From a virus (taxonomy: Duplodnaviria; Caudoviricetes): a stretch of 27,915 nucleotides of DNA. The DNA is taken from positions 1 to 27,915 of IMG/VR virus record IMGVR_UViG_3300043756_000111, one strand, 5' to 3'. Each line of letters starts with the position of its first letter. Positions within the stretch are counted from its first letter, which is position 1. Shown piece by piece: positions 6,061-24,058 of the stretch. The translations under genes and the position numbers were made by a program. The notes under the pieces were generated by a model. The model had not been told where the DNA came from. It saw only the letters and a list, made by a program, of their open reading frames with translations, and made no database searches.

Positions 6061-6089
6061 AATATAGGCCAAAATGGCCAGGATGGCAA
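6061..6089 (-). promoter_or_regulatory. sigma70-type leftward promoter with a palindromic spacer
   Basis: TTGCCA-17 bp-TATATT. The spacer contains GGCCATTTTGGCC. Confidence 0.7.
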
Positions 6090-6241: not shown

Positions 6242-6278
6242 GACTCCTTGTAGGCAGTGGCCTGTTGCAAGCGGCCAC
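6242..6278 (-). repeat. partial copy of the intergenic element (CTTGC hairpin plus CAAGGAGTC) with no gene behind it
   Basis: Minus strand GTGGCC-GCTTGCAACA-GGCCAC-TGCCTA-CAAGGAGTC. No start codon at normal RBS spacing. Confidence 0.65.
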
Positions 6279-6310
6279 AAAAAACCCCCGGAGCCTTTCG
6301 GCTTCGGGGG
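6279..6310 (-). terminator. Rho-independent terminator of the repeat-punctuated operon
   Basis: CCCCCGAAGCC-GAAA-GGCTCCGGGGG followed by TTTTTT on the minus strand. Confidence 0.85.
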
Positions 6311-6380
6311 TGCAAGGGGACCACATAGTCTCCGACGTAAAAACAATCATCCTGACAACGACTCCGTAGTTCATTTCGTT

Positions 6381-6752
6381 TTACGCGGCGCGTTTCCTGT
6401 CCTTGTTTTGCATTGCTCGTTCATAGAGCTTTTGCCATTCCTGTGGCGTACGAGCGTTACGCTCCTTGGCAGGGCAAGCAAGCAATGCGTTGAGTTGCTG
6501 ACGTTTTATCGCTTCGTGGATTTCGTCGCCCGTCGTATACCAAGTGCGACTGGCGCAATTGCAACGGTTAGCAGGCGGAAGCACGCGCAACAATTCACGC
6601 CGTTGCAAAGCAAGAATTGCGGCGTGAACAGCATCGCCATAGGCAATGCGATCCTCGCGTGACAGTTTCGCGAGTCCTTGCTTGGCACGACGTCGGTACT
6701 TTTCAACAGTTGCACCAAGCAACGGATATGACGGCCCGGCAGGGTCAAGCAT
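6381..6752 (-). CDS. hypothetical protein
   Basis: Start MLDPAG at 6752 overlaps the upstream stop. Ends shortly before the terminator. Confidence 0.65.
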   Translation of the reverse strand: MLDPAGPSYPLLGATVEKYRRRAKQGLAKLSREDRIAYGDAVHAAILALQRRELLRVLPPANRCNCASRTWYTTGDEIHEAIKRQQLNALLACPAKERNARTPQEWQKLYERAMQNKDRKRAA

Positions 6753-7023
6753 CGCCGTACACCTCGCAGCTGAACCAATTGTGCTGCGGGAATGCTTTGA
6801 CGGCATTGGCGCGCGCGATCACAGTCGGCTCGCGTGAGCCACGCACGTAATCTTGTTGACGCTCGTATCTGTAGCGGTTTTCGTGCGCCCAACACGCATG
6901 ACAAAGGATTAAGTTGCCACTGAGCGTGCCGGGAGTGCCGAGAGGATAGACACGAACCTCGCCGGTTTCGCTGAAGCAGTGCGAGCCGTCGCAATTCGGA
7001 TTGTGTTTCTGCTTTCTAGGCAT
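6745..7023 (-). CDS. small Cys/His-rich (probable Zn-binding) protein
   Basis: Start MPRKQK directly after the element RBS. Contains NCDGSHC and LCHACW. Confidence 0.75.
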   Translation of the reverse strand: MPRKQKHNPNCDGSHCFSETGEVRVYPLGTPGTLSGNLILCHACWAHENRYRYERQQDYVRGSREPTVIARANAVKAFPQHNWFSCEVYGDA

Positions 7024-7027
7024 TTCA

Positions 7028-7117
7028 GACTCCTTGTCGTGATAAACCGCGAGCAAGCGCGGTAGTGTTCGGATGAACACTATGACGCGGGCCGCGTAGG
7101 TCCGCGCTTAGTGCTCA
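7028..7117 (-). repeat. structured intergenic element, copy 1
   Basis: TGAGCACTAAG-CGCGGACC-TACGC-GGCCCGCG-TCATAGTGTTC-ATCC-GAACACTA-CCGCG-CTTGCT-CGCGG-...-CAAGGAGTC. Confidence 0.95.
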
Positions 7118-7246
7118 CGCTCAGTATGTATCCCATCCGCAAATGCGGATAACATGCCGAGTGCCGCCAAACATGCGGCGATAAAGAAAAAATCATGTCC
7201 AGAACGACCGGCATTTTCTGATAGGCCAGTACGTAAGTCTCATTGG

Positions 7247-7750
7247 CTACATTCTCCGTTGACGTGCACCGGGAGGCGACTTGACTTCTTGTTCGACCAC
7301 ATCGCGCTTGCCGTAGCCGTCGATGTTGACGGGCAGGCGCACAGTCGAATCAGTAAAACACCAGATGTGATATTTGTTGCTGGTATCAACCATCCGACTT
7401 TCGGCGGGATAGAGTTCGAAGCCTTCGCATTCATCGCCGACCAGCTGGTTCTTGATCCACTGGCGGTGGCGCCAATCAAAAATCGGCGCGCCATCGATGC
7501 GACGAATGTTGAGATGGATCATGTCTTGTTCGAACGCTTCGTTGCGGAAGCGGCGAACCTGAACCTGATACAAATCGTTGCGCCAGTACGTGCATGTGTC
7601 GTCGTAATCCTTGAGGCGCTTGCAGGCGGCCTCAAAATCCAGCCCGTACTGTTGCATCGCCACGTCAACGAAGTGTCGATACTTCGAATCGGTATAGTCG
7701 CGGCGGTCAACCGTAGCTTCCCGCAGCGGTTTCCAGTTCTTCTTGGTCAT
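7247..7750 (-). CDS. conserved phage protein (HLxIRRxD...W...KN...YPAES..VD...H.W family)
   Basis: 167 aa. The motif pattern recurs in uncharacterised phage proteins. RBS GAGGA. Confidence 0.8.
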   Translation of the reverse strand: MTKKNWKPLREATVDRRDYTDSKYRHFVDVAMQQYGLDFEAACKRLKDYDDTCTYWRNDLYQVQVRRFRNEAFEQDMIHLNIRRIDGAPIFDWRHRQWIKNQLVGDECEGFELYPAESRMVDTSNKYHIWCFTDSTVRLPVNIDGYGKRDVVEQEVKSPPGARQRRM

Positions 7751-7945
7751 CTATGACTTCCTCATTTGAGCGTTGTAGATAAGCCAATAGGTGACTTCCG
7801 CGATGGCGTTGTGATAGGTGTCGTCTCCAATCATGTCGTCTTCCTCGTATCCGCTGGCAACACTCAGGTAGACGCCAGCAGTTTTATTAGTAGGATTGGA
7901 GCGGAACTCGTCTTGTGCTTCGTCAAATGTTATCAGACGTCTCAT
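7751..7945 (-). CDS. hypothetical acidic protein (64 aa)
   Basis: Start MRRLITF directly after the element RBS. The track extension runs through the repeat. Confidence 0.7.
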   Translation of the reverse strand: MRRLITFDEAQDEFRSNPTNKTAGVYLSVASGYEEDDMIGDDTYHNAIAEVTYWLIYNAQMRKS

Positions 7946-7949
7946 TTCA

Positions 7950-8043
7950 GACTCCTTGTTTGTTGGTCGCGTGCAAGCGCGAGAGTGTTCAGGATGAACA
8001 CTATGAGACGGCAGGGCTCGCGCGCTGCCGTCCTTAGTGCTCA
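7950..8043 (-). repeat. structured intergenic element, copy 2
   Basis: Begins at the TGA stop of the ASCH gene. Upper stem GACGGCAG/CTGCCGTC, then TCGCG-CTTGCA-CGCGA and CAAGGAGTC. Confidence 0.95.
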
Positions 8044-8457
8044 ACGTTCGGCGTAGTGTCCGATACGATATGGTTCGAAGAACCCGAGACGGCCAGCGCA
8101 TTCTTTGAATGCACTAGGTCGCGAGTGCTCCAATACGAAACCGTACGGACCGAAGAACCAAGGCGAAAACAGTTGTTCGTGTCCAGGCGAATGTTGTTCG
8201 TGTACAACATCGACAAGATGGGAGCGCCCAACAATGCCGCCGCGTTTCAACTTATCGTCATCAGGAACAATGATGCCGAAACGCGAGCTAGCCCAGGATC
8301 GAATTTTGGCCCGTTCTTCTGGCGTGCCATACAAGTTTAATCCTGCGTGGATCAAGAACTCGCCTCTGAACTCAGTGGTCCAGGTTCGATTCTCGATGTT
8401 TTTGTGGCCGTGAACGATCAGCCATGCCCACGGTTGACGAATACTAAGCGCTTTCAT
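8041..8457 (-). CDS. ASCH domain protein
   Basis: MKALSIRQPWAWLIVHGHKNIENRTW (GxKxxExR), LIHAG, GGIVG and G.LGFF. Confidence 0.92.
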   Translation of the reverse strand: MKALSIRQPWAWLIVHGHKNIENRTWTTEFRGEFLIHAGLNLYGTPEERAKIRSWASSRFGIIVPDDDKLKRGGIVGRSHLVDVVHEQHSPGHEQLFSPWFFGPYGFVLEHSRPSAFKECAGRLGFFEPYRIGHYAER

Positions 8458-8460
8458 GGG

Positions 8461-8643
8461 TTATGATCTCACGGCAGGTTTGAGATCCGATAGGAACAAC
8501 GTTTCGTAAATGCCGTTGTCCCATTTGACCTCAGCAATCGCGCCCGCAATCGAAATGATCCGGCCGACATGACGCGGATCAGCAGCATTGTAGACGTGAT
8601 CGCCGCAATGGAACTTGAGGTGATCGCCACGTTTAGCTGGCAT
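8461..8643 (-). CDS. small hypothetical protein (SH3/Tudor-like beta pattern)
   Basis: FHCGDHV...VGRII...AEVKWDNG. RBS AGGAGG. Confidence 0.65.
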   Translation of the reverse strand: MPAKRGDHLKFHCGDHVYNAADPRHVGRIISIAGAIAEVKWDNGIYETLFLSDLKPAVRS

Positions 8644-8848
8644 GGGATTCCTCCTGTATCGCGATTTCGATCAGTTTGTCCCAGATTGGATCTCCTTGCT
8701 CGCCACCGATTGCGAGCGCCTCGATGGCGAGCTTCATGATTGAGACAGCTTGTGCGGGAGTAATCCGGCGCGATTGGAGATAATCGAGAAGCCTTTCGGT
8801 TTCGTTGAACGGGTCTTCTTTGATCAGTTGTGCTGACATGTTGGTCAC
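8633..8848 (-). CDS. hypothetical protein
   Basis: 71 aa ORF overlapping both neighbours. The start could be ATG 8839. Confidence 0.6.
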   Translation of the reverse strand: MTNMSAQLIKEDPFNETERLLDYLQSRRITPAQAVSIMKLAIEALAIGGEQGDPIWDKLIEIAIQEESHAS

Positions 8849-9093
8849 TCCGTCACGTGTCTATCGTAGTACTCCTTGACTTCGCGCGCGGCGTTGGCCA
8901 AGGTTTCATAGTCATAATTGAACGGCTCGATTTGTTTGGCATAGAGCGGCATGACCCGGTCTCGTATCCAATCACGCCAGCCGTTAACGTCCAGACCACG
9001 GCGCGCCATCAGGCAATGCAGCTGATAGAATTCGCCCGTGTTGATTGTGAACAACACCAGATCATGACGTTGGATCGTCGGTTTGTCTTTCAT
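8845..9093 (-). CDS. hypothetical protein
   Basis: 82 aa. Start follows the element RBS. Confidence 0.8.
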   Translation of the reverse strand: MKDKPTIQRHDLVLFTINTGEFYQLHCLMARRGLDVNGWRDWIRDRVMPLYAKQIEPFNYDYETLANAAREVKEYYDRHVTE

Positions 9094-9099
9094 CGTTTA

Positions 9100-9188
9100 G
9101 ACTCCTTGTAGTGATAACCGCGAGCAAGCGCGGAGTGTTCAGGATGAACACTATGAGGCGGCGCATGTAGCGCCGCCCTTAGTGCTCA
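9100..9188 (-). repeat. structured intergenic element, copy 3 (identical to copy 7)
   Basis: TGAGCACTAAGGGCGGCGCTACATGCGCCGCCTCATAGTGTTCATCCTGAACACTCCGCGCTTGCTCGCGGTTATCACTACAAGGAGTC. The first TGA is the stop of the vWA gene. Confidence 0.95.
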
Positions 9189-10775
9189 GTAGCGTACGCC
9201 AACGTCGATGGCGGGCGCGCCCCAAGGCGCGTGCGCAATGTATTGCCTGACGCGCTCGGGATATCCGTGCACCGCGAAGAGGACGGGGCACGATGGTTGC
9301 GGGCCTGGATCACCGATTTCGAGGTCCGTGAAATTGACGATCAAGGAACAATCGTCAATTTGCTCTTCGACATAGGCGAACAGCGGCCTCATGTCGGTGC
9401 CGCCACGGCCGCGCGGATCGAATACGATCTCATCTTGTTGATGATACGTATCAACTCGCGTGACTTGAACATCACCATAGACGACGATGATTTCATCGAT
9501 GGCGCCGTCGTCCAACGCAGCTTGCGTTTCGTCGCGAACCTGGGCCAGCGCGATGTCATCGCACGAGGCAGAGGTGTCAATCAGAAACGCAACTCGATTG
9601 ATACCGTCCCGTTGGCGTCCGGGCAGATACAATCCCTGGCCAATGAACCGGCGATTTGGTCGGTTCCAGGTTTCGGTTTGTAGCGATCCTTGATCGAACC
9701 ACGCGCGCAGCGTCTCGCGCCAATCCTGGGTTGGATTATTCGAGCGCTCGATCTCGGCGGTGACATGTCCAGGAAGTTGACCGCGCGCTTTCGCCATCGC
9801 GGCGGCCTGTCGAACGATCCGATCCCATTTCTGTTCAGGATCGGGTCCGTCCGTTGACGGCGGCGCGTCGAGAACCTCGCCCACGCTACCAGGGAAATCG
9901 CCGCCACCGTTGGACAGTGGCTTGCCATTTTCTTGTTCGCCGTCGTCGCCCTGGTCGCCTTCGGCTTGGGCGTCGCCTTCGCCCTCGGATTGTTCGTCCT
10001 CGGATTCGCCGTCGCCTTCGCCGTCGCCATCTGAGGATTTCTCGTCAGCTTGTTCGTCACTGTCACCAGTGCCGCCCTTGCCTTCGTTGTCCTGATCTTG
10101 CTCGCCGTGATCAGCATCAGGGCTTTCGCTCTTGCCGTCGCCGTCGTCTTGATCTTCGTCCTCATCGTCAGGATCGCCATTGCCGGTTGCGGTGTCGCCT
10201 TCGTCGGTATCGTCGGACGATTCATCATCGCCCTCGCCGTCGTCAGCCTCTTGATCTTCGGAGTCCTGATCGCCCTCGCCATCGCTGGCTTCAGGAGAAT
10301 CACTGTCCTCAGATTCCTGCTCGTCTTGCTGCTGCTGCTGTTTTTGCTGCCGCTGCTCATCGAGTTCCATGCTGCGATAAATGTCCTCAGCGGACATGCC
10401 TCGATATTTCTCATCAATCAGGACGTCGTCGAGTAGGTCAAAGCCCTGATCTTTGAGAACGAGATTTATCGCGTAGTCGCATGCCTTGTTCCAGCGTTCT
10501 GGATCACGATTGCCGCGTCGCATTGAATGCTTGCTTGCATCGTGTTCGCTTTCGTGCGCCTGAACGAAAACCACTTGTGTTTGACGTTCGAGACTGGCGA
10601 CGAAATCGGGGTTCCAGTAATGCTTGGTCGAATCCGTCGCTGCGCGTTTGACTTGACGCGACAGAACAGGCTCGACGTTTGAAACAAGGACACCATAAAA
10701 CCGGCGCGACATGATCAGCTCGGCACGGGCTTTCGCGACGCGCTCCGCTGCAATCTTGTCGTTTGGATTTTCCAT
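9186..10775 (-). CDS. putative metallopeptidase-vWA protein (DUF2201-like) with a long acidic linker
   Basis: Start MENPND after the element RBS. HESEH...H zincin-like motif and WNKACDYAIN. MIDAS DTSAS plus GGTD and FTD. D/E/G/Q-rich low-complexity middle. Confidence 0.88.
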   Translation of the reverse strand: MENPNDKIAAERVAKARAELIMSRRFYGVLVSNVEPVLSRQVKRAATDSTKHYWNPDFVASLERQTQVVFVQAHESEHDASKHSMRRGNRDPERWNKACDYAINLVLKDQGFDLLDDVLIDEKYRGMSAEDIYRSMELDEQRQQKQQQQQDEQESEDSDSPEASDGEGDQDSEDQEADDGEGDDESSDDTDEGDTATGNGDPDDEDEDQDDGDGKSESPDADHGEQDQDNEGKGGTGDSDEQADEKSSDGDGEGDGESEDEQSEGEGDAQAEGDQGDDGEQENGKPLSNGGGDFPGSVGEVLDAPPSTDGPDPEQKWDRIVRQAAAMAKARGQLPGHVTAEIERSNNPTQDWRETLRAWFDQGSLQTETWNRPNRRFIGQGLYLPGRQRDGINRVAFLIDTSASCDDIALAQVRDETQAALDDGAIDEIIVVYGDVQVTRVDTYHQQDEIVFDPRGRGGTDMRPLFAYVEEQIDDCSLIVNFTDLEIGDPGPQPSCPVLFAVHGYPERVRQYIAHAPWGAPAIDVGVRY

Positions 10776-10780
10776 TGTTT

Positions 10781-10868
10781 GACTCCTTGTCGTGAGTTGC
10801 TCGCGTGCAAGCGCGAGAGTGTACATCGGTACACTATGAGGCGGCCCGTAAGCCGCCCTTAGTGCATC
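10781..10868 (-). repeat. structured intergenic element, copy 4
   Basis: ATGCACTAAG-GGCGGCT-TACG-GGCCGCC-TCATAGTGTAC-CGAT-GTACACT-CTCGCG-CTTGCA-CGCGAG-...-CAAGGAGTC. Confidence 0.93.
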
Positions 10869-10871
10869 GGG

Positions 10872-11822
10872 TTAGGACAGAAACTTGCTGACGTCGGCGA
10901 GAATGTCGTCAGCCGACTTGGCAACGCTCTTGCGCGCCTTGTCGTTTTTCCGAAGTTCGTCAGCATCCTCGGCGCACAACTCTTTGGCCATGCGCTTGGT
11001 GATTTTGTCGAGTTCGGGATCATTGGTCAGATTGAAGGCTGGTAGTAAGTCAACAAGTTCGCGGACGTTCTTGACCAGGGAATCGCGGAAGACGCCCTCA
11101 GCCTTTTCTAAGGTGGTCCGCTTGCCTTTGCCGCTCTTGCGGCGCGTTGGCTGAGCGTACTCGACTTCAGCGGGCTTGTAGTCCTTCAATCGTTCCGCCA
11201 TGTGACCAACCGTTGCGATGATTTGTTCGATCGTCGCTTTCATCGCCCCGGCGACAGCTTGATCAGACGCCTCGGCGATCTCTTGCCGGATGTCTTCGAC
11301 GATCTCGCTATCGAGATCTGACCGAAAATCATCAGCGTCAGGCAGAGGCATGAACCGCAAAGTCATCTGGAACTTGTGCTCCATTTCCTCAACGCTCGGA
11401 TAGTCGGCCGGATCGAAGGCACCGTTCAGCTGCTTCTGCCGCTGTTTCACCGCCTCGGGATAGACGCGGATGAAGTTCTTCTTTGCCACCTCGAACTTTT
11501 GTTTCAGTTCGCGGAAATTGTTGGAGAAGTTCTCATACAGTGCATTCGGCAGAATACGCGGGCCTTCATCTGCCCAAGGACGCGTCACGCGGTAGTGCAG
11601 GAGACGCGCCTCGGAAACAAGTCCCTGAAGTTCGGCGAGATAGGATCCGCCGATCAGCAACTTGTTGTATCGTCCCGCATCTTCAGTTGCGGCATAGCGT
11701 TTATTGGTTTCTGTCGTGATCTTGCGATCCAGCTTGCGCGCGGACCATTGCGAGATCGTCAGCGAAACCAGCAACGCTTTGCGCTTCAACGGCGAGGCGA
11801 TTGCAGTTTGTTTATTAGCCAT
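10872..11822 (-). CDS. DUF3150-like helical protein
   Basis: ALLVSLTISQWSARKLD and DYPSVEEMEHKF. Lies between the AAA+ and vWA genes, the usual context for this family. Confidence 0.7.
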   Translation of the reverse strand: MANKQTAIASPLKRKALLVSLTISQWSARKLDRKITTETNKRYAATEDAGRYNKLLIGGSYLAELQGLVSEARLLHYRVTRPWADEGPRILPNALYENFSNNFRELKQKFEVAKKNFIRVYPEAVKQRQKQLNGAFDPADYPSVEEMEHKFQMTLRFMPLPDADDFRSDLDSEIVEDIRQEIAEASDQAVAGAMKATIEQIIATVGHMAERLKDYKPAEVEYAQPTRRKSGKGKRTTLEKAEGVFRDSLVKNVRELVDLLPAFNLTNDPELDKITKRMAKELCAEDADELRKNDKARKSVAKSADDILADVSKFLS

Positions 11823-11828
11823 TTCATT

Positions 11829-11922
11829 GACTCCTTGTCAGTAGAATTAACCCCGCTGCAAGCGCGGTAGTGTTCGGATGAACACTATGAGATGCCGCAT
11901 GTAGCGGCACCCTTAGTGCTCA
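11829..11922 (-). repeat. structured intergenic element, copy 5
   Basis: TGAGCACTAAG-GGTGCCGC-TACAT-GCGGCATC-TCATAGTGTTC-ATCC-GAACACTA-CCGCGCTTGCAGCGGGG-...-CAAGGAGTC. Confidence 0.95.
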
Positions 11923-11933
11923 CGTTCAGGAAG

Positions 11934-12977
11934 TTATTGAACGATGAGGTCGGCATTGGCTACGGCCCATTCGCCATAGCAGGACGTGTTCTTGAGACTT
12001 TCGTCACGGTTGGTGGCGTCGGTCACCAGTAACATTTCCTTTTCGCGGTTGAGGCGTTGCGCGTACTTCATGATATTGGCGAAATTCTTCTTGGTCGCCA
12101 TACGCGCTAGACCAGTGCAGACCGCATATTGTAGCGACGGCTCAGTCGGAATTGGCGCAGTGTCGGGATTATTAGCGACGTCATCTAGAGTTCCGATGCT
12201 GCGATAGATGCCGATGAAACCATCAAACTCGGCAGCGGGTCCGTCGCCGATATGAGCGGCGAACAAACGCAACCGGAGTTTATCCGAGGCGTTCACGTGT
12301 TTTGCTGCTGCAACGTTTGAACGCGGCGAAGGAAACGTGTTCTCATCACCGCGCGGCATTCGATGCAACAGACCGTCACCGGCCGCCTCACGAAAGCGAA
12401 GGAATGCGACCAACTCGGGCGATACGCCATTCGCATTCGCCCACAGGCAAAACGCGGGTAGATCCGGTTTGCAGAACAAGTGAGCGAACCGATTGCGCAA
12501 CGCGGTCGGCATGCGTTGTGCAGCGGCACGGTCGCTCACTCGATTCCCCGCTGCGACGATGACCCAGCCGTCAGGCAGGACATAATCGCCGACGCGGCGA
12601 TCGAGCACGAGACCAAACAGAACAGCCATCATTTGCGGCGATGCTGTATTGATTTCGTCCAGGAACAAGATGCCACGCTTCCCGTCGCGCTTCTCCTGTG
12701 GCAATTCATCAGGAACGAGCCACTTGGTTGAACCGCTTTTGAGATCAGGAACAGGAATGCCGCGAACGTCTACAGGCTCTCGCAGGTTGGCACGATATTC
12801 GATGACCTTGCGGTCAGTCGCCTCGCCCATCTGAAAGACGATTGCAGACTTGCCGATACCGGGCGGCCCCCATAGCATGACGGCGGCGCCAGCGTCGGTT
12901 AGTTCGCGCAGAAGCACGGCGGCCTCGGCCATCGTGACTTCATGTTCAGTAAGAATAGTAGGTGCTAGCATTGTCAT
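11934..12977 (-). CDS. MoxR/dynein-related AAA+ ATPase
   Basis: Walker A GPPGIGKS, Walker B ILFLDEIN, sensor I VAAGN, Arg finger ALRNRF and sensor II PSPRS. Confidence 0.92.
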   Translation of the reverse strand: MTMLAPTILTEHEVTMAEAAVLLRELTDAGAAVMLWGPPGIGKSAIVFQMGEATDRKVIEYRANLREPVDVRGIPVPDLKSGSTKWLVPDELPQEKRDGKRGILFLDEINTASPQMMAVLFGLVLDRRVGDYVLPDGWVIVAAGNRVSDRAAAQRMPTALRNRFAHLFCKPDLPAFCLWANANGVSPELVAFLRFREAAGDGLLHRMPRGDENTFPSPRSNVAAAKHVNASDKLRLRLFAAHIGDGPAAEFDGFIGIYRSIGTLDDVANNPDTAPIPTEPSLQYAVCTGLARMATKKNFANIMKYAQRLNREKEMLLVTDATNRDESLKNTSCYGEWAVANADLIVQ

Positions 12978-12978
12978 A

Positions 12979-13073
12979 GACTCCTTGGAGATGTGAACCG
13001 CGTTGCAAGCGCGGTAGTGATCGGACGATCACTATGGAACGGCGCTTTTACAAACGCCGCTCGGTAGTGAACG
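12979..13073 (-). repeat. structured intergenic element, copy 6 (most divergent full copy)
   Basis: CGTTCACTA-CC-GAGCGGCGT..GCGCCGTTC-CA-TAGTGATC-GTCC-GATCACTA-CCGCG-CTTGCAA-CGCGG-...-CAAGGAGTC. Confidence 0.9.
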
Positions 13074-13074
13074 A

Positions 13075-13320
13075 TCAGCACTCTTGTTCGATGCAGAGCG
13101 TGTCAGGAGTTATGAAAAAACCACGACGTGGGCGCATTATGTCGCCCGCATCAAGAAGTGGTTTGAGATACTTGGTAAGCGGCCAGCCAGCTCCAACACT
13201 GGCAGTAACACCGGCAGGCAGCAATCCAAGTCGCACCAGTTCGTGATACATTTCGGTGCGGCGAACGCCTCGACTACACAAGTCGATGATCGCGATGTTG
13301 GTCAGGTCGTCTTTAGTCAT
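13075..13320 (-). CDS. hypothetical protein
   Basis: 81 aa. Exactly fills the gap between element copies 7 and 6. Confidence 0.8.
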   Translation of the reverse strand: MTKDDLTNIAIIDLCSRGVRRTEMYHELVRLGLLPAGVTASVGAGWPLTKYLKPLLDAGDIMRPRRGFFITPDTLCIEQEC

Positions 13321-13327
13321 TGTTCTA

Positions 13328-13416
13328 GACTCCTTGTAGTGATAACCGCGAGCAAGCGCGGAGTGTTCAGGATGAACACTATGAGGCGGCGCATGTAGCG
13401 CCGCCCTTAGTGCTCA
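13328..13416 (-). repeat. structured intergenic element, copy 7 (identical to copy 3)
   Basis: Same 89 nt as 9100-9188. Begins at the TGA stop of the upstream gene. Confidence 0.95.
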
Positions 13417-13761
13417 ACGTAACGAATTCAGATATTCGTTGAGATTCGCTGTGAAGCGTTGCGCATTCGGGTGCGAGTTACGAAACCCGAGAGCGATCCA
13501 ACCATTGAACCACTCGCGTAACACATCGATTTGCTTGGTTGAGAATATGTTAACCATATCCTCATCGTCGCTCCAAACAATGCGCGCGGCGATATGGTTG
13601 CCGATGCGCTTTGCATTAAAGCTGTACGTCATCTCACCGTCACTCAGAACGAAGCGTCGGGTGTCGGTCACCTGATCAAGAAGTGTGAGTTCCTGTTGAT
13701 CGAACTTGTTGCCTTTCATGGCGCGATCAACGGTGTGCGTGATCAGTCGATTTGAGTACAT
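13414..13761 (-). CDS. hypothetical protein, first gene of the leftward operon
   Basis: Start reassigned to ATG 13761 (MYSNRL) after CAAGGAGTC. Confidence 0.78.
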   Translation of the reverse strand: MYSNRLITHTVDRAMKGNKFDQQELTLLDQVTDTRRFVLSDGEMTYSFNAKRIGNHIAARIVWSDDEDMVNIFSTKQIDVLREWFNGWIALGFRNSHPNAQRFTANLNEYLNSLR

Positions 13762-13767
13762 CGTGTA

Positions 13768-13830
13768 GACTCCTTGTAGTTTGATGAACCGCGTTTGCAA
13801 GCGCGGGTGATGCTGGATTGCATCCAGAAG
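13768..13830 (-). repeat. partial/lead copy of the intergenic element
   Basis: CCGCG-CTTGCAAA-CGCGG...CAAGGAGTC, preceded by a different pair of overlapping hairpins (CTGGAT/ATCCAG versus GATGC/GCATC). Confidence 0.8.
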
Positions 13831-14275
13831 AGGCACGGCACTCGATCCACAGAGGGCAATGGCCGCGCCCCTTCAAGATGCACACCTTGCAAGTGTGCAG
13901 TAGTAGGAGTCGGAGTCAGATAGATTGTTTTACGTCGTTCATACGTCACGCGCCGGGAACGCTATCATCGTTGAGCGCAGCGAACAGCTACTCGGATTAA
14001 ACCTACGATGGGAAGCAACGGAACCGCGACACCACGCACGAACAAGAAGTTCGTACTCGGCGAGAGCCTCTAGGGTGGACGTGCGACCAACAAGAAGTTG
14101 GCGCACGCGGGCAAGCCACCGCGCGCGTTGACTTAGACAGACTATGTATCAAACTGTGCGAGTCCTTGATGCCGTCACCTCGGGGGAGGCCCGGTTGACC
14201 CGGTCATTCGGCACAGATCGAATTGTCAATTAGCATGCGTAACGTTACCGTGTGTAACGTACGCTATGAACGTGC
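13831..14275 (-). ncRNA. candidate long structured 5' leader or ncRNA
   Basis: No convincing ORF between the promoter and the first gene. Several hairpins, including two with TTCTT loops and two with CTTGC in or at the loop. Confidence 0.5.
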
Positions 14276-14279
14276 ATAG

Positions 14280-14308
14280 AATATAGGCCATTTTGGCCAT
14301 AGGCGCAA
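14280..14308 (-). promoter_or_regulatory. sigma70-type leftward promoter with a palindromic spacer
   Basis: TTGCGC-17 bp-TATATT. The spacer contains GGCCAAAATGGCC. Closely matches 6061-6089. Confidence 0.7.
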
Positions 14309-14973: not shown

Positions 14974-16593
14974 ATGTCATTGGACGTTGACACATCACAA
15001 CTGGCGCGCCGTCGGCGCAAAAAGCGGAGACGCGGACAGGGCAACAGACGCGCCAGAGATGTCATCGATTTCATCGAAAGGCTGACAATCCCGAGCGGTA
15101 TCGGGGCGGGTCAGCGTTTCGAGCTGATGGAATGGCAGAAACGATTCATCCGCGATATCTATTCGCCACAACAAAACGGTAAACGAATTGTCCGCCGCGC
15201 CATTCTCAGCATCAGCAGGAAAAACGGAAAGACGGCGCTGATCTCGGCCATCGTGCTGGCGCATTTGGTCGGCCCGGAGGCGATCCCGCGCGGTGAGATT
15301 TACTCAGCGGCCAACGATCGCGATCAGGCGGCGATCGTGTTCAAGTTCGTGCGGCAGCTGATCGAACAAGAACCAGAGTTACGTGGCGAGGTCGAGATCA
15401 TTCCTTCGACCAAAACCATGATCGCGCATCGCACTGGCTCGATCTATCGGGCGTTGTCATCTGAAGTCGGAACCAAGCACGGATATTTGCCGAGCGTCGT
15501 GATCTACGACGAGCTGGCGCAATCCAAGAGCCGCGCTTTATATGACGTGCTTGATACGTCATTTGGCTCGCGCTCAGAACCGCTGTTCATTGCGATCAGC
15601 ACGCAAAGCAATGATCCCGAACACATTCTGTCAAAACTAATCGACGACGGATTATCGAAAGTCGATCCGAGCATTGTGTGTCATCTCTATGCTGCCGATG
15701 AAGGCTGTGCGCTCGATGACGAGTCACAGTGGACCAAAGCAAATCCCGCGCTGGATATATTTCGCGATCGACAGGATCTCGTGAGCGCGATCAAGAAAGC
15801 GATACGTTTGCCATCCGAAGAAGCCAAAGTCAGAAACTTGTTCTTGAACCAGCGCGTATCGCCGATCACGCCGCTGATCGCCGCGGCGGAATGGAAAGCG
15901 TGTGCGGGCGAGGTTGAGTTCGAGCCGGGCGAGCGCGTTTATCTGGCGCTCGATCTGTCATCGACACAAGATCTCACCGCGCTAGTGATGGGATCAATCG
16001 GCGAGCCGTGCCGGATCACATCATTTTTCTGGAAACCGGGAGCTACCGTCGACGATCATTCGGCCCGCGACTTCGGTACAGGAAGTCGTCGCTATCGCGA
16101 ATGGATGGATAGTGGGCATTTGTTGCTCAGCGCGGGACGTAGCATCAGTCACGAGCAAGTCGCGCTGAAAATTGCTGACTTGTCCAGGCACTATCAAATC
16201 CTGGGCATGGCTTACGATCGATGGCGCATCAACGATCTGCTGCGCGAGTTCGATCGGATCGGCTTTGCCGCTTACGAAGATGGCAAAGACAAAAATCAGG
16301 TTGGTCTGCGCCTCGTGCCGTGGGGCCAAGGCTTCAAGGATCAGGCGCCAGCGATCGACGCCCTAGAGAATGCGATCAATTCGCGCGCACTGATCCATGA
16401 TTCAAATCCCGTACTTAATTGGAACATGACCAACGCCATCGCCGTGATGGACCCGGCTGGCGGGCGCAAGCTCGACAAGAGCAAGGCGCGGTTCCGTATA
16501 GACGGCGCGGCGGCCTTGGCGATGCTCATGGGGCTGCGGTCTAGGGATCGCGGACCTGCAAGGATTGTGGATGTCGAGGCGTTGATCGGCTAG
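14974..16593 (+). CDS. terL: terminase large subunit (cos-type Terminase_1-like)
   Basis: LMEWQ, Walker A RKNGKT, Walker B VIYDE, ISTQ, nuclease LDLSSTQDLTA, YDRW and RIDGAAA. Confidence 0.96.
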   Translation: MSLDVDTSQLARRRRKKRRRGQGNRRARDVIDFIERLTIPSGIGAGQRFELMEWQKRFIRDIYSPQQNGKRIVRRAILSISRKNGKTALISAIVLAHLVGPEAIPRGEIYSAANDRDQAAIVFKFVRQLIEQEPELRGEVEIIPSTKTMIAHRTGSIYRALSSEVGTKHGYLPSVVIYDELAQSKSRALYDVLDTSFGSRSEPLFIAISTQSNDPEHILSKLIDDGLSKVDPSIVCHLYAADEGCALDDESQWTKANPALDIFRDRQDLVSAIKKAIRLPSEEAKVRNLFLNQRVSPITPLIAAAEWKACAGEVEFEPGERVYLALDLSSTQDLTALVMGSIGEPCRITSFFWKPGATVDDHSARDFGTGSRRYREWMDSGHLLLSAGRSISHEQVALKIADLSRHYQILGMAYDRWRINDLLREFDRIGFAAYEDGKDKNQVGLRLVPWGQGFKDQAPAIDALENAINSRALIHDSNPVLNWNMTNAIAVMDPAGGRKLDKSKARFRIDGAAALAMLMGLRSRDRGPARIVDVEALIG

Positions 16594-16728
16594 ACTTATT
16601 CGGTCTCGGCCATCCCAGAGATGACACCCATATCCCTGTTGCCGGGACATAGCCGCCGTCGGCCGATCATGTTCTGATACCCATGACTTGGATGCCGACG
16701 GCGGCACCTTCCCCTAGCAAACAACATC

Positions 16729-16950
16729 ATGAAATCCAACGGCTCATATGCGGCGCGATACTTTCGCGAGATGCAGCGCATGACCTCGCTGCTTCAAGAT
16801 ATCTACACGCCAATCCAAGCGGTCGAATGGCTAGTGAAAAAGCACACATTGCTTGATGGCCAGAGCCCATCGCAATTGATTGCGCAGGGTCGCACGGAAG
16901 AAGTCGAGCATCTGATCGAACAATTACGCGACGGAGATCAGTTCACATGA
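16729..16950 (+). CDS. MbcA/ParS/Xre antitoxin C-terminal domain-like protein
   Basis: AVEWLVKKHTLLDGQSPSQLIAQGRTEEVEHLIEQL fits the W...L.G..P...G...V pattern. Confidence 0.7.
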   Translation: MKSNGSYAARYFREMQRMTSLLQDIYTPIQAVEWLVKKHTLLDGQSPSQLIAQGRTEEVEHLIEQLRDGDQFT

Positions 16951-17138
16951 GGGAACAACTGCATGAAGTGATGACAGCGACGGCCTCGCTGGAAAGCCTA
17001 CGCGAAGCGCTCGCCGATCATGAAATCAAATCCGAAGAAATCATCGCCGTGTTGGCGGTTGAGGCATCGTTCACTGGCAATGCAATGCAAACGACGCAGC
17101 CACGCTTGCGCGTCATTTATCGAAAGGCGGCCGCTTAA
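16947..17138 (+). CDS. hypothetical protein
   Basis: 63 aa, ATGA-coupled, RBS GGAG. Confidence 0.55.
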   Translation: MREQLHEVMTATASLESLREALADHEIKSEEIIAVLAVEASFTGNAMQTTQPRLRVIYRKAAA

Positions 17139-17367
17139 ATCTGTAGTGATGCATCAGATCTAGGATGTACACATCGGCTAGCGCGCGGTCTAATTCTTCT
17201 TTGTCCTGTTTGCTCTGTTTATAATCGTCATCGTCGATAGATTTGCGCAAACAATTTGACACGCGCTTGAACGCTTCAGCATAGCCAGGAACGTTTTCAA
17301 TCTTGTATTGATGATCAGCCCAGATCCCGGCGATCACGTCTTCGCTCAGTTCATCTTGTTCATTCAT
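17113..17367 (-). CDS. hypothetical protein on the antisense strand (moron-like)
   Basis: Start MNEQDE at 17367. Lower-GC stretch that fills the gap before the capsid gene. Confidence 0.55.
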   Translation of the reverse strand: MNEQDELSEDVIAGIWADHQYKIENVPGYAEAFKRVSNCLRKSIDDDDYKQSKQDKEELDRALADVYILDLMHHYRFKRPPFDK

Positions 17368-17399
17368 GCTCACACTCTCATGAATCAAAGGAGATGGCC

Positions 17400-20132
17400 A
17401 TGCCGCTTCGTAAACCAAAGCCCGGCGAAAGCCAATCGTCATTCATGGAATATTGTATGCATGAAGTCTCGCAAAGTCCGGATCGCACCAATGAACAGAA
17501 TGTCGCGATCTGCCTGGACAAATGGCACGAAGTGCATCCGCGTCGGGCCGCCTCGAATTGGGTCTGTGGTGCATCGCGCGATCTACCAATCGCTGAGACT
17601 GAACGCGCCTGGGACGGCTCGGCAGCGGCGAAACGTATGTTGGATCGCGCCAATATCGGCGAAGAAGAAGGCGCGAAACCTGAGATGGCAAAGCTCGGAT
17701 TCCTGATATACGACCGGGCCAATGGCGAATTGCGTGGGTCGTATTCCTGCCCATTTGCCGATATTGTTGATGGAACATTGAAAGTCATCCCGTCCGGATT
17801 GCGGGCTGCGGCGTCCAGACTGCCGCAAGTGACCGATGTTTCGCAGAGCGTGAAGGATCGCGCTCGTGGAGTGCTCGATGCGTATTTCGCGCGGCTGGAG
17901 GACAACGACGACAAGGGCGCGAACGACGACAAGAGCACCAAACAGGATTACGATGGATATGACGCGCCCGACGTCGCGCCGGGGGAAAGCCAGGATCGGT
18001 ACATCGAGCGCTGTGTGATGGATTTGGAGCGGCAAGGCGCCGATGAAGGCGACGCCAGCCGATTGTGTCATCTCGCCTGGATGAATCGGACCTACTCCAG
18101 ACTGCGGCACAAGACGCATGCCGAGACCGTTCAGGGCATGGATTTTGTGTTGTCCGATGAATCAGAAGATCGGATGGGTGATGTAATTTCGGCGGCCGGT
18201 TGGGATCTAACAAACTTCTTGAAAAATCCGATTGCGCTGTTTGGGCACCGCAATGATTTTGTGATCGGAACATGGGAAGGTCTGCGCAGCGAAAAGAATG
18301 CGCTGCGCGGCAAACTCAAGCTCGCGCCAGCAGGCACCAGCGAGCGCATCGATGAAATTCGCAAATTGATCGAGGCCGGTATTCTCAAGGCGGTGTCGGT
18401 CGGTTTCAGACCAATCACCTCCGTGCCGCGTCGAGATGGCGACAAGTATGTCGGCGAACATTTCACGCGGCAGGAGTTGATCGAGACCTCCGTGGTCTCG
18501 GTGCCAGCCAATCCCAATGCGCTGGCGATTGCCAAGTCATTGGATATTTCCACTGACACGATGGATTTGGTCTTCGGCAAGCACGCCGCAGCGAGACCAA
18601 TCAGGAAGATCGGTGGTTCATTCGCCGAGCATGGCGCCAGCAATCAGAAGCTGAAGGAGCGCTCGCACATGAGTGCATTAACACAGCAGATTTCTCAGGT
18701 GGAAGCTGAGATTGTCGGAGTAAAGGACAAGCTCAAGGACTTCTGGAATAGCGTCGATCAGACCAATGTCACTGACGTCGAGATGCAGACCGCGCAGGAC
18801 TTGAACGAGGAACATGCGCGGCTCGACAAACTGCGCACGACGCTCAAAGAGTCCGAAAAATTTATGATGGAAACTGGGGAGCAAGAACATCGCCAGCTTG
18901 CGCTTCGGACCAACGGCGGCGGCAATGGCAGTGGCAGCGGAGAAATCCGCAGGCCGAACATCCAGACGGATCGTCGGCAGATGCCGAAGACCAAGGAGGA
19001 ACGGCTCGACATCATCGCGCGGGTCGGTGTGATCACGGTGCTCTCGCACATCAAGAAACTTAATCCTGAGGCGACGCGCCAGTTTATCGCCGCGCAGTAT
19101 TCGCGCTATGCCGACGAGGGCACCAAGGCGTTTCTGGATTATATCGGCAAGGCGCCGAGCGCGCCTGCCATGACCACTGTCGATGGGTGGGCGGCGGAAT
19201 TGGTTCAGCAAATCCATGCTGACTACATGGAATTGCTGCAACCCGATTCGGTTTTCCCGCGATTGTCGGCGTTGGGTCTCAGCCTGCAATTCGGTCGTGC
19301 CGGGCGTATCGTCGTGCCGACTCGATCGCGCACGCCGAGCATCTCCGGATCGTTTGTTGGTGAAGGCCAACCGATTCCTGTTCGTCAGGCCGCGTTCACG
19401 GCGCAGATTCTAACTCCGAAAAAAATGGCCGTGATCTCAACTTGGACCAGAGAAATTGATGAGAGTTCTATTCCTGCAATCGAAGGTCTGTTGCGCAGCG
19501 CGATTCAGGAAGACACAGCGGTCACGTTGGATTCGATCTTGATGGATGCCGACGATGCCGATGCGATCCGACCAGCTGGTCTGCAAAGCCAGAATCCGAT
19601 CGCCGGGCCGCCGCCAAATGGCAGCGGTGCCACCGAGGTTCTTCCTGCCGCGATCGGTGCGGCTGGTCCGTTCGGAGCACTAGTCGACGATCTCAAGGCG
19701 TTGATCGGTGCGCTGCTTGGTCCGACACAGGGCAACGTGCGTCGGGTCGTGTTGCTGATGAACCCGCAACAGAAGTTGTCGATCTCGCTGACAGCCATGC
19801 CGGGCGTGAGCGCATTCCCGTTCATGGATGCGATGGGTCGCAACGTGTTGTTGGATTACACGGTGATCGGTTCAGGCACGGTTCCGGCTGGCAAGATCAT
19901 CGCGATCGACGCCGCGGACTTCGTCACTGTGGGCGGTGAAGCCCCGCGCTTCGAGGTGAGTGACCAGGCCACGCTTCACATGGAGGACTCGACTCCGGGA
20001 CCGATCCATGGTTCTACTCCAGTGCGATCGCTGTGGCAAACGGATTCACTCGGTCTTCGACTGATACTCCCGATCAATTGGTGCATGCGGCGCGACGGAA
20101 TGGTCGCGTTTGTTGAGAACATCGCGTGGTGA
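17400..20132 (+). CDS. fused HK97-type prohead protease, scaffold and major capsid protein with an N-terminal extension
   Basis: Protease motifs DRMGD, PIALFGH, AVSVGF and ETSVVSVPANPNA, then a coiled coil, then capsid motifs FVGEGQPIP, LTPKKMAVI, DAADF and SLWQTD. AAGGAG lies 6 nt before ATG 17400. Confidence 0.92.
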   Translation: MPLRKPKPGESQSSFMEYCMHEVSQSPDRTNEQNVAICLDKWHEVHPRRAASNWVCGASRDLPIAETERAWDGSAAAKRMLDRANIGEEEGAKPEMAKLGFLIYDRANGELRGSYSCPFADIVDGTLKVIPSGLRAAASRLPQVTDVSQSVKDRARGVLDAYFARLEDNDDKGANDDKSTKQDYDGYDAPDVAPGESQDRYIERCVMDLERQGADEGDASRLCHLAWMNRTYSRLRHKTHAETVQGMDFVLSDESEDRMGDVISAAGWDLTNFLKNPIALFGHRNDFVIGTWEGLRSEKNALRGKLKLAPAGTSERIDEIRKLIEAGILKAVSVGFRPITSVPRRDGDKYVGEHFTRQELIETSVVSVPANPNALAIAKSLDISTDTMDLVFGKHAAARPIRKIGGSFAEHGASNQKLKERSHMSALTQQISQVEAEIVGVKDKLKDFWNSVDQTNVTDVEMQTAQDLNEEHARLDKLRTTLKESEKFMMETGEQEHRQLALRTNGGGNGSGSGEIRRPNIQTDRRQMPKTKEERLDIIARVGVITVLSHIKKLNPEATRQFIAAQYSRYADEGTKAFLDYIGKAPSAPAMTTVDGWAAELVQQIHADYMELLQPDSVFPRLSALGLSLQFGRAGRIVVPTRSRTPSISGSFVGEGQPIPVRQAAFTAQILTPKKMAVISTWTREIDESSIPAIEGLLRSAIQEDTAVTLDSILMDADDADAIRPAGLQSQNPIAGPPPNGSGATEVLPAAIGAAGPFGALVDDLKALIGALLGPTQGNVRRVVLLMNPQQKLSISLTAMPGVSAFPFMDAMGRNVLLDYTVIGSGTVPAGKIIAIDAADFVTVGGEAPRFEVSDQATLHMEDSTPGPIHGSTPVRSLWQTDSLGLRLILPINWCMRRDGMVAFVENIAW

Positions 20133-20148
20133 TGACGTTGCGCGGACA

Positions 20149-20661
20149 TCATCTAGCCCGCGCGAACTGTCCGAAGTGGGCCTTCGCGGCTTTCACATAA
20201 GCCGCATGGCCCGCCTCGGGATCATCGAAATAGCCGAGGGCGACCCAACGACTATTGATAGTGATGCCTACTTGATATTTGTTTGATGGCTTATGCCAAG
20301 AAACTCCTTTAGGTGTGTGTTTGTTTTTCCGCAGGCGTATGCTTCTGTTGTGCATATTTTGCAAATGATTAGCTGGTCTGAGATTCGACCAACGATCATC
20401 GTCTGGCTTGCAATTCTTGTGATCCATCTCAACGTTCGGCCATCGGCCGGTCATGAACAAACATGCCAAATGCGAGGCCATGTATTTCCTATAATTGATG
20501 CAGATAACTCGATGTTGGTTTGCTTGCAGGAGAGTTCCGGCGACACGGCCGACCCCAATGGGGCCGCGCTTTTGAACGCGCCATCTAAACACGCCGGTCT
20601 TCGGATTGTAGTGCAATAGCTGGCGCAGCCGCTTTGCTGTTAAAGTTGGCTCAGCCTTCAT
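20149..20661 (-). CDS. HNH homing endonuclease with an AP2-like DNA-binding domain
   Basis: LHYNPKTGVFRW, MDHKNCKPDDDRWSNLR..N..N, KGVSW and LGYFDDPEAGHAAY. Confidence 0.92.
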   Translation of the reverse strand: MKAEPTLTAKRLRQLLHYNPKTGVFRWRVQKRGPIGVGRVAGTLLQANQHRVICINYRKYMASHLACLFMTGRWPNVEMDHKNCKPDDDRWSNLRPANHLQNMHNRSIRLRKNKHTPKGVSWHKPSNKYQVGITINSRWVALGYFDDPEAGHAAYVKAAKAHFGQFARAR

Positions 20662-20861
20662 CGTGATACTCCCACGGTGCGAGGTTAGACTCGGCCGTCG
20701 TGTCACAGCGCGGCGGTCGAGTCGCTTAACAAATAAGGGCCGTCGTCGGCAGGCGCACGATGGACGTCACCAATCACTTGGCCGACGACGGCAGCAACAG
20801 CAGTCAGGCTATGGGTAGCACTGAGATCATGGCCGTCACGGCTGTGAACATAGCAGGAAAA

Positions 20862-21935
20862 ATGAGTCCGTTTGAAGCGAGAAAATCGGCGGTTCCGCCG
20901 CGCCCCTTCAGCGCATCGCCACGCAAGGCGGATGCGCTTGATCTGCTTGTGCGCGCAGCCATCGTACAAACCTATGCGCGCGTTCGTCGCATGGGCGTTG
21001 AGCAAGCGCGCGCGACAATCGCAATGAAGCGCCTGCGCTATGACGACGAAGCAACAAAGCTCATTTGCCGCGCAGCCAGTGCACCGGCCACGACGTTTGA
21101 TGTCGAATGGGCGTCTGAGCTTGTTGTTGCCGAGGGCGCCGATTTGATTTGCACGCTTATACCGCGCTCAACATTCGCGCAGCTTGCGGCACAGGGCATG
21201 CACCTCACGTTTAGCGGCCCGGAAATCCTGGTGCCCAATTATCTGCCGAATGTGCCGGGCTTGTTTGTTCGCCAGGGGGAACCGATTCCGGTGCTCCAGG
21301 GACAGACGACTGGCCAGTTGCTGACGCGAAAAAAGATGCCTTGCATTGTCACCTACACGGGCGAAATGTCCGAAGGCGCCATCGTGACGATGGAAGGCAT
21401 TTTCCGTACATGCATCACGGAGTCGACGACGTTGGCACTTGATGCCGTGTTGTTGGATGATCAGCCGGGAAGTGATGTTAGACCGGCAGGTCTACGCAAT
21501 GGTGCTGTCCAGGTTGCCAGCACGGGCACGCTGCACAGTGATTTACAATTGCTTGTAGAAGGATTGCTTGGGGTCGCCGACAATCATGTTCGTGCGCCGA
21601 TTTTGATCATGAATCTGGCGCAAGCGGTAGCTTCGCGCATGCAAGATTATAGAAACATCGTGCCGGTGATACCATCGCCGAGTGTTGCGCCCGGCACGGT
21701 GATGATGGTCGATGCGGCCGACTTTGCTTGTGCGGGCGGTCAAGTTCCGCGCGTCGAGATGTCGAAAGAAGCGGCGCTGCATTTCGACGATGTGGCTCCG
21801 GATCATCTCGATGGTGCAAGTCCTGTTCACAGTTTGTGGCAGGAGGAATTGTTAGGTCTGCGTGTGATTCTTGAAGTGGATTGGTGTTTGCGCCGTCCTG
21901 GCGTTGGTTGCTACATGATAGATGCGCATTGGTAA
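20862..21935 (+). CDS. second HK97-fold capsid protein paralog
   Basis: Collinear similarity to the capsid part of 17400-20132 (FVRQGEPIPV, LTRKKM, DAADF, SLWQ, WCLRR). Likely start ATG 20862 after AGGA; the track start is 20760. Confidence 0.85.
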   Translation: MSPFEARKSAVPPRPFSASPRKADALDLLVRAAIVQTYARVRRMGVEQARATIAMKRLRYDDEATKLICRAASAPATTFDVEWASELVVAEGADLICTLIPRSTFAQLAAQGMHLTFSGPEILVPNYLPNVPGLFVRQGEPIPVLQGQTTGQLLTRKKMPCIVTYTGEMSEGAIVTMEGIFRTCITESTTLALDAVLLDDQPGSDVRPAGLRNGAVQVASTGTLHSDLQLLVEGLLGVADNHVRAPILIMNLAQAVASRMQDYRNIVPVIPSPSVAPGTVMMVDAADFACAGGQVPRVEMSKEAALHFDDVAPDHLDGASPVHSLWQEELLGLRVILEVDWCLRRPGVGCYMIDAHW

Positions 21936-24044: not shown

Positions 24045-24058
24045 CGGAGTGGACTTAT

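Follow-up and report, generated by a model that had tools for sequence, protein, structure and literature searches.

What does a structured sequence of roughly 90 nt do when it recurs between the genes of a single phage operon? The question is raised by a 27,915-nt stretch of a tailed phage (Caudoviricetes; IMG/VR record IMGVR_UViG_3300043756_000111), a linear virus record with an estimated completeness of 33%, the whole of which is referred to here as the window. Its right half carries terminase, head and tail genes, and the repeated elements sit in a leftward 8-kb operon that includes genes for a MoxR-type AAA ATPase, a DUF3150-like protein, a DUF2201/vWA protein and an ASCH-domain protein, together with orphan genes. 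The element is real, conserved and undescribed in the sources searched. We propose, with confidence somewhat short of an even chance, that it is a host RNase III processing site repeated along one long transcript.

In the mRNA sense a full copy consists of a strand A, a GC-rich stem, a strand B, a strand C, a small hairpin and a ribosome binding site (RBS). The nine GACTCCTTG positions that a first-pass annotation had listed are all present, in a single orientation, and a start codon lies 1 to 7 nt past the motif in eight copies and 20 nt past it at 6242. Its count of seven full and two partial copies holds for the seven and for 6242, which contains only the small hairpin and RBS motif behind an intrinsic terminator, but the copy at 13768 is a full structural copy written in different letters, for a total of eight full copies. 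In that copy (13768-13885) the A, B and C strands all differ in sequence from those of the other copies and the GC stem is longer; the copy scores 34.4 bits against R1, a covariance model built from 82 hand-picked copies. The other seven score 65.9 to 79.6 bits (E ≤ 1.8e-13), six of them having been in the R1 seed and the seventh, 9100, being identical to the seed copy at 13328; the top sense-strand R1 match in the window outside the elements reaches 11.3 bits. Positions 9098-9188 equal 13326-13416 over exactly 91 nt. Folding z-scores against shuffles ranged from -2.8 to -6.0 in the eight copies folded, 13328 having been left out because it is identical to 9100. In transcript order, with B1 denoting the first nucleotide of strand B, the copies are as follows.

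13768-13885, minus strand: element copy 1, full but divergent, with a long GC stem (by R1 score and fold).
13328-13419, minus strand: element copy 2; strand A at 13408-13417, B1 at 13380; 91 nt identical to copy 6; predicted cut 13381/13380.
12979-13076, minus strand: element copy 3; B1 at 13033.
11829-11925, minus strand: element copy 4; B1 at 11886.
10781-10871, minus strand: element copy 5; B1 at 10835.
9100-9191, minus strand: element copy 6; strand A at 9180-9189, B1 at 9152; predicted cut 9153/9152, alternative 9141/9140.
7950-8046, minus strand: element copy 7; B1 at 8002.
7028-7120, minus strand: element copy 8; B1 at 7081.
6242-6278, minus strand: lone 3' module (small hairpin and RBS motif) without a close start codon.

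The element belongs to a family that is confined to one phage clade. Relatives were collected through homology to the ATPase and through one pattern match. Of 43 close sources, one of them the window, 40 had a sense-strand R1 match of at least 30 bits, with strong copies from outside the seed among them, whereas 68 distant sources (1.19 Mb, including the left end of T7, and part of the distant loci fetched) yielded a single match, with E=0.5. Removal of antisense matches, three odd rows and duplicates from 150 aligned matches left 125 distinct copies from 35 loci, several of which are close kin, so that the copies are not independent. Every copy in the five near-complete relatives falls within one operon, over at most 6.3 kb. 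The search of Rfam that the first-pass annotation called for found no family (Rfam 15) at the gathering threshold in the window or in seven relative loci, and the window gave a single weak, unrelated match, at 1285, at E ≤ 1. A blastn search of one copy against 50,697 phage records returned two chance matches only, and exact-pattern scans of viral contigs returned 0, 1 and 0 matches. No published description was found in the literature searched, which was mostly open access with supplements excluded; PMC5737381 held nothing beyond families that Rfam would cover.

Four helices covary across the family: a 9- to 10-bp helix between A and B (A:B), the GC stem, the small hairpin and a competing helix between B and C (B:C), with A:B and B:C mutually exclusive because both use strand B. 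Both structures had a paired fraction and a covariation score above those of all 500 shuffles, and slid controls were all lower. Several types of strand B, very unlike one another in sequence, are found, and the A and C strands match in each type. When a strand B is paired with the C of its own copy, the longest helix has a mean length of 6.3 bp, compared with 4.6 bp for the C of another copy and 4.1 bp after shuffling. The GC stem contains 98 G-U pairs versus 7 A-C pairs when read as the mRNA strand, to which the alignment had been fitted; the A:B helix, with 74 G-U versus 62 A-C pairs, says nothing about strand. The two folds are close in predicted energy, with a median difference of -1.3 kcal/mol, A:B being the lower in 88 of 123 copies and the two lying no more than 2 kcal/mol apart in 61. 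The span between the top A:B pair is 23 to 36 nt, about one helical turn, in 124 of 125 copies. For strand C to covary, there must be a state that leaves A absent or engaged elsewhere. Two such states remain, one in which A is on another molecule after a cut and one in which A lies under a ribosome. Beside these folds, an extra hairpin with a CUUGCAA-type loop (window 13880-13896, minus strand) overlaps strand A of copy 1 and competes with A:B.

In the RNase III reading, strands A and B together with the GC stem would fold into a hairpin of some 20 bp interrupted by an internal loop at its centre, and host RNase III would nick its 3' arm directly 5' of strand B. The GC hairpin would stay on the upstream message and protect its 3' end, and strand C would displace A, so that the downstream message would open with a B:C hairpin as a cap, followed by the small hairpin with its GCAA loop, an A-rich spacer and the RBS. 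Strand C could also speed the release of the product by RNase III, a step described as rate-limiting (PMC3867540). A phage RNase III was not found in the five near-complete relatives. Among the mechanisms that the first-pass annotation had listed, processing fits best, as a prediction. What the data establish is the repeat with its positions, covariation and breakpoints, whereas the fold in vivo, the cleavage with its enzyme and site, the stabilization and the ribosome effect are inferred. The predicted helix has the 20 to 22 bp and the internal loop that RNase III sites require, and single-strand cuts at internal loops are reported to leave stabilizing 3' hairpins (PMC3867540). The A:B helix was scored in 12 registers against six RNase III box rules (PMC1540722), which are rules for the Escherichia coli enzyme and may not be those of the host; the best register predicts a cut just 5' of B1, with a mean of 3.07 of 6. 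Its proximal box, at B1-B4, has A-U or U-A at position 2 in 109 of 124 copies (G-C in 4) and G-C at position 1 in 86. Distal position 2, at B9, is a U-G wobble in 54 of 124 copies, which the top register explains and which PMC1540722 calls a stringent requirement. That position is paired in 122 of 125 copies, and 95 to 97% pairing there in vivo is reported (PMC6212723). Independently of the box score, the B:C helix begins at the predicted cut, with Watson-Crick pairs at B0 in 17 of 123 copies and at B1 in 93 (pairing of B2-B4 with C had been a search requirement), and a fragment starting at B1 is predicted to have a paired 5' end in 120 of 123.

Several observations weigh against this proposal. 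Five hairpins of T7 satisfy four to six of the same six rules, compared with the mean of 3.07 for the element, although that comparison is partly circular because the rules derive from one of these hairpins. The T7 hairpins, which we take to be the early-mRNA sites R0.3 to R1.3, were located by motif, T7 records carrying no RNase III site annotation. Permutation of alignment columns gave P=0.11 for the best register and P=0.035 for both orientations together, which is weak sequence evidence. A second register, with the cut at the base of the helix and inside the B:C loop, scores 2.93 of 6 and would not explain strand C; the upstream UGA supplies two box positions of this base register and may inflate its score. 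Proximal position 3 is A-U in just 9 of 124 copies, the GC-rich upper half of the hairpin is a poor half for RNase III recognition, and the copy at 13768 has G-C at proximal position 2 in the register of the model. The box rules, being those of E. coli, may not fit the host enzyme. RNase III also leaves the conserved GCAA loop without explanation. A subtype whose B strand differs and whose RBS reads GGAGCA or AGAGCA is found in three relatives (L030, at 9134-9975 and 15732-17306, L028 and L047); it has a poorer RNase III box fit and a low R1 score.

The position of stop codons ties the element to ribosomes. With a crude gene caller, the stop of the upstream gene is a UGA inside strand A in 49 of the 106 copies that have a called upstream gene, including 7950, 9100 and 13328 in the window, and it lies 11 to 25 nt ahead of the top of A in 40 more. 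Because the stop is often in or near strand A, a terminating ribosome might open A:B and tip the RNA into the B:C fold, which would be uncleavable. An extended form of the RNase III proposal, in which one nick plus strand displacement would leave each of the two products of a self-capping cassette with a terminal hairpin and the terminating ribosome would gate the cut, is doubtful on our assessment; if it were true, whether a junction is cut would depend on whether the gene ahead of it is translated. The same stops, and the near-equal energies of the two folds in half of the copies, are also what would be expected of a stability barrier or insulator that is never cut, akin to the repetitive extragenic palindromic (REP) elements: a hairpin behind the stop codon would block exonucleases or slow the termination of translation, and B:C would serve only to hold B in a helix during the time that a ribosome has A open. 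Ribosome stalling is reported for REPs that lie no more than 15 nt from a stop codon (PMC12306157). We consider such a barrier unlikely, since the GC stem alone would suffice for it, leaving the internal loop, the AU-rich 10-bp helix and the position-specific pairs superfluous, and since the first copy has no convincing upstream gene.

The small hairpin is a module of its own. Its loop letters (GCAA) are conserved while its stem covaries. The A-GC-B-C module occurs without it in four copies that have no room for it, and the small hairpin with RBS is also found alone: there are 49 sense versus 11 antisense matches outside elements, some of them false, and in two relatives (L019 and L057) one stands at the predicted transcript start. 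These features suit a platform for a phage RNA-binding protein, an antiterminator or translational activator that would read the GCAA-loop hairpin and set the A:B/B:C switch. We nevertheless consider this quite unlikely: four copies lack the hairpin, no RNA-binding family was found among the 36 window proteins or 19 shared proteins, and neither fold opens the RBS. The last point also speaks against a translational switch by RBS occlusion, the mean unpaired probability of the RBS being 0.59 in the A:B fold versus 0.56 in the B:C fold, where it is more open in 9 of 123 copies and less open in 37. The expression module proposed in the first-pass annotation is supported at the RNA level, where all helices covary; translational activation by a fold switch is not. 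A pseudoknot between the loop and the RBS (CUUG with CAAG) is possible in the window and, judged by eye, is not kept in relatives. A GANTC methylation site in the RBS was considered and rejected: the motif occurs there, as GGAGTC, in 87 of 123 copies, with no clear depletion of GANTC. In two relatives (L079, 7887-7960; L057, 9356-9430) the leader holds an A-GC-B-C module without an RBS, inside a doubtful 94-aa frame that lacks a Shine-Dalgarno (SD) sequence.

A ribosome-coupled attenuator, in which a ribosome-free strand A would let the hairpin extend through B and end transcription, is very improbable. A strong GC hairpin does adjoin stop codons, and some degenerate junctions in relatives consist of a hairpin with a U-rich tail. 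However, no copy among the 125 has more than 4 T in the first 8 nt past the stem, and strand C, which would be made after the decision, covaries all the same. The covariation of C and the absence of a U tract likewise rule against a plain terminator.

Comparison of gene content and order among relatives, which the first-pass annotation had asked for, revealed gains, losses and one swap at elements. Thirteen locus pairs were compared by blastn. Relative to L056, L049 has one additional element-plus-gene unit with both breakpoints inside elements; L079 has additional units at two places relative to L057, again with breakpoints inside elements; and an 89-aa gene in L009 separates the two halves of an element that is uninterrupted in L011. 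The trio of AAA ATPase, DUF3150 and vWA genes keeps the same order in 29 of 30 loci, the exception being L022, where the DUF3150 and vWA genes have changed places, both with an element in front. The description of the units as holding unrelated genes therefore fails for this conserved trio, and a role as a homology handle for shuffling is supported for small accessory genes and for one core-gene swap, not for a trio that is otherwise fixed. The longest shared exact stretches between elements have a median of 13 nt within a genome versus 8 nt between genomes. As a side role, the repeats may act as homology patches where genes come and go, and in the extended, ribosome-gated form of the proposal any gene captured at such a recombination seam would bring along a stop codon, a processing site and an RBS. 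Whole-gene insertions and deletions must end in elements, however, as these fill most of the intergenic space, and this limits the shuffling reading; the same locus pairs show several element-free insertions or deletions outside the operon, which cautions against over-reading, and insertions at plain junctions exist (L184, L058 and L038). At any one junction the element is dispensable, preceding 24 of 33 ATPase genes, 28 of 33 DUF3150 genes and 19 of 32 vWA genes.

The single orientation, the cassette layout and the breakpoints inside elements could also suggest a site at which a dedicated recombinase acts on single-stranded DNA, as with integron attC. This is scarcely credible, given that the attC core pair occurs in 0 of 125 copies on either strand and no integron integrase scores above the TIGR02249 cut-off in any of the five near-complete genomes; a tyrosine integrase is encoded elsewhere in three of these genomes and is absent from two, a PF07508 serine recombinase is absent from all five, and ordinary homologous exchange would suffice. 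Least credible of all is an unknown self-cleaving ribozyme, which by cleaving before B would give the same cut-and-cap logic but has no Rfam match and few invariant unpaired bases.

The host RNase III proposal supposes one long message, and the array is bracketed by one promoter (14308-14280) and one terminator-like hairpin (about 6312-6271). The operon and its signals are listed here in transcript order.

14280-14308, minus strand: promoter of the operon, sigma70-like, its spacer a palindrome and likely an operator; the design matches relatives L057 and L079.
13414-13761, minus strand: 115-aa gene with no family match, ending at the UGA within strand A of copy 2.
13075-13320, minus strand: 81-aa gene, no family.
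11934-12977, minus strand: MoxR-type AAA ATPase gene (AAA_5).
10872-11822, minus strand: DUF3150-like protein gene (score under the Pfam cut-off).
9186-10775, minus strand: DUF2201 metallopeptidase-like/vWA gene, terminating at the UGA within strand A of copy 6.
8041-9093, minus strand: four small genes; the last of them (8041-8457) has an ASCH domain and terminates at the UGA within strand A of copy 7.
7247-7945, minus strand: 64-aa gene and DUF7694 gene.
6381-7023, minus strand: two small genes, no family.
6271-6312, minus strand: intrinsic-terminator-like hairpin and U run at the operon end (predicted -22.2 kcal/mol; missed by a simple terminator scan).
6061-6089, minus strand: second sigma70-like promoter, with the same palindromic spacer as the operon promoter.

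The same promoter design lies about 370 nt ahead of the first element in L057 and L079; beyond the promoter, conservation of the 390-nt leader with these two relatives is not convincing. The promoter type and gene content suggest that the operon transcript is probably early. A sigma70 or sigma54 promoter within the element itself was considered and rejected, the spacing being variable and the second box absent. The first operon gene (115 aa) had no match among phages or in the Atlas. The closest named homologues of the ATPase (45 to 48% identity) are in genomes of Pseudochrobactrum, Ancylobacter, Hoeflea and Aurantimonas, around which the element is absent, and terminase matches do not exceed 44% identity.

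Other features of these genomes were observed along the way. The spacer palindrome of the promoters at both operon ends (14280-14308 and 6061-6089, minus strand) is of a GGCC type and is likely a repressor operator; promoters of this kind occur in relatives at L057:9147 and 15407, L079:7678 and L019:8352, and a family of small helix-turn-helix (HTH) genes, with 11 copies, is found near the operon end in relatives. On the plus strand, the window encodes a ParB-like protein followed by an ABC-ATPase/GNAT acetyltransferase fusion (232-1925; phrog_11143), a 912-aa protease-capsid fusion followed by a second capsid-like gene (17394-21935; 391 aa, phrog_617), and two TIG/IPT-repeat proteins followed by a protein of at least 1,285 aa with collagen repeats and repeats of about 56 aa (21952-27913). 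Other dispersed repeats of about 100 nt and 55 nt, with inverted-repeat ends and unrelated to the element, occur in L012 (4284-4487 and 15338-15437) and L018 (1863, 3971 and 5932).

If the RNase III proposal is correct, a long and fast-changing accessory operon would be run from one promoter with a stable, tunable message for each gene, and one cut could protect both new RNA ends. With 125 natural variants and exactly predicted cut positions, the proposal can be tested directly, and the module could serve synthetic operons as a portable insulator.

The element shares features with several known systems. Like integron attC sites, it uses imperfect inverted repeats to split an array into cassettes of one orientation, but it lacks the core sites and is accompanied by no integron integrase. 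Like REPs, it is a repeated GC-rich hairpin soon after stop codons (PMC12306157); in contrast to them, it is limited to one phage operon and one strand and carries the RBS of the next gene. The start-associated sequences (SAS) of cluster K mycobacteriophages and their extended form (ESAS) also place an RBS-containing repeat, sometimes with an upstream inverted-repeat module, before nonstructural genes (PMC3203893). ESAS is built from a single pair of inverted repeats of 17 bp that follow a sequence consensus, whereas the element has three helices with compensatory changes, two exclusive folds and no common sequence; compared by eye, neither the 13-bp SAS nor the 17-bp inverted-repeat consensus, as given in PMC3203893, appears in the element alignment. 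The PeSLs of T4-type phages are closer, being repeats of about 100 bp that end in an SD sequence and start codon, flank orphan genes and recombine (PMC2839356), and recombination at the element has likewise altered gene content (L049/L056, L057/L079 and L009/L011). PeSLs have a sigma70 promoter and a working terminator (PMC2839356); the element copies have neither a promoter match nor a terminator stem-loop with a U tract, and one promoter serves the whole operon. A sigma70 scan found 6 sites against 7.0 expected, just one of which (12997-12970, 9/12) touches a copy. The element thus resembles PeSLs as a recombination seam without being a PeSL, an attC site or an ESAS; the first-pass annotation had likewise not recognised it as any of these. 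The RNase III signals of T7 carry their recognition boxes in the upper stem and give no score against R1, and the covarying competitor strand C, the second hairpin with its conserved loop, the near-identical repeats and the gene turnover distinguish the element, whose cleavage is predicted, from them. Both, however, are intergenic internal-loop hairpins between a stop codon and the next RBS on a polycistronic phage transcript (PMC1540722, PMC3867540), the proximal and distal boxes match in part, and the stabilizing 3' hairpins left by single-strand cuts in T7 have a counterpart in the predicted products, so that in position and probable action the element probably works like the RNase III signals of T7.

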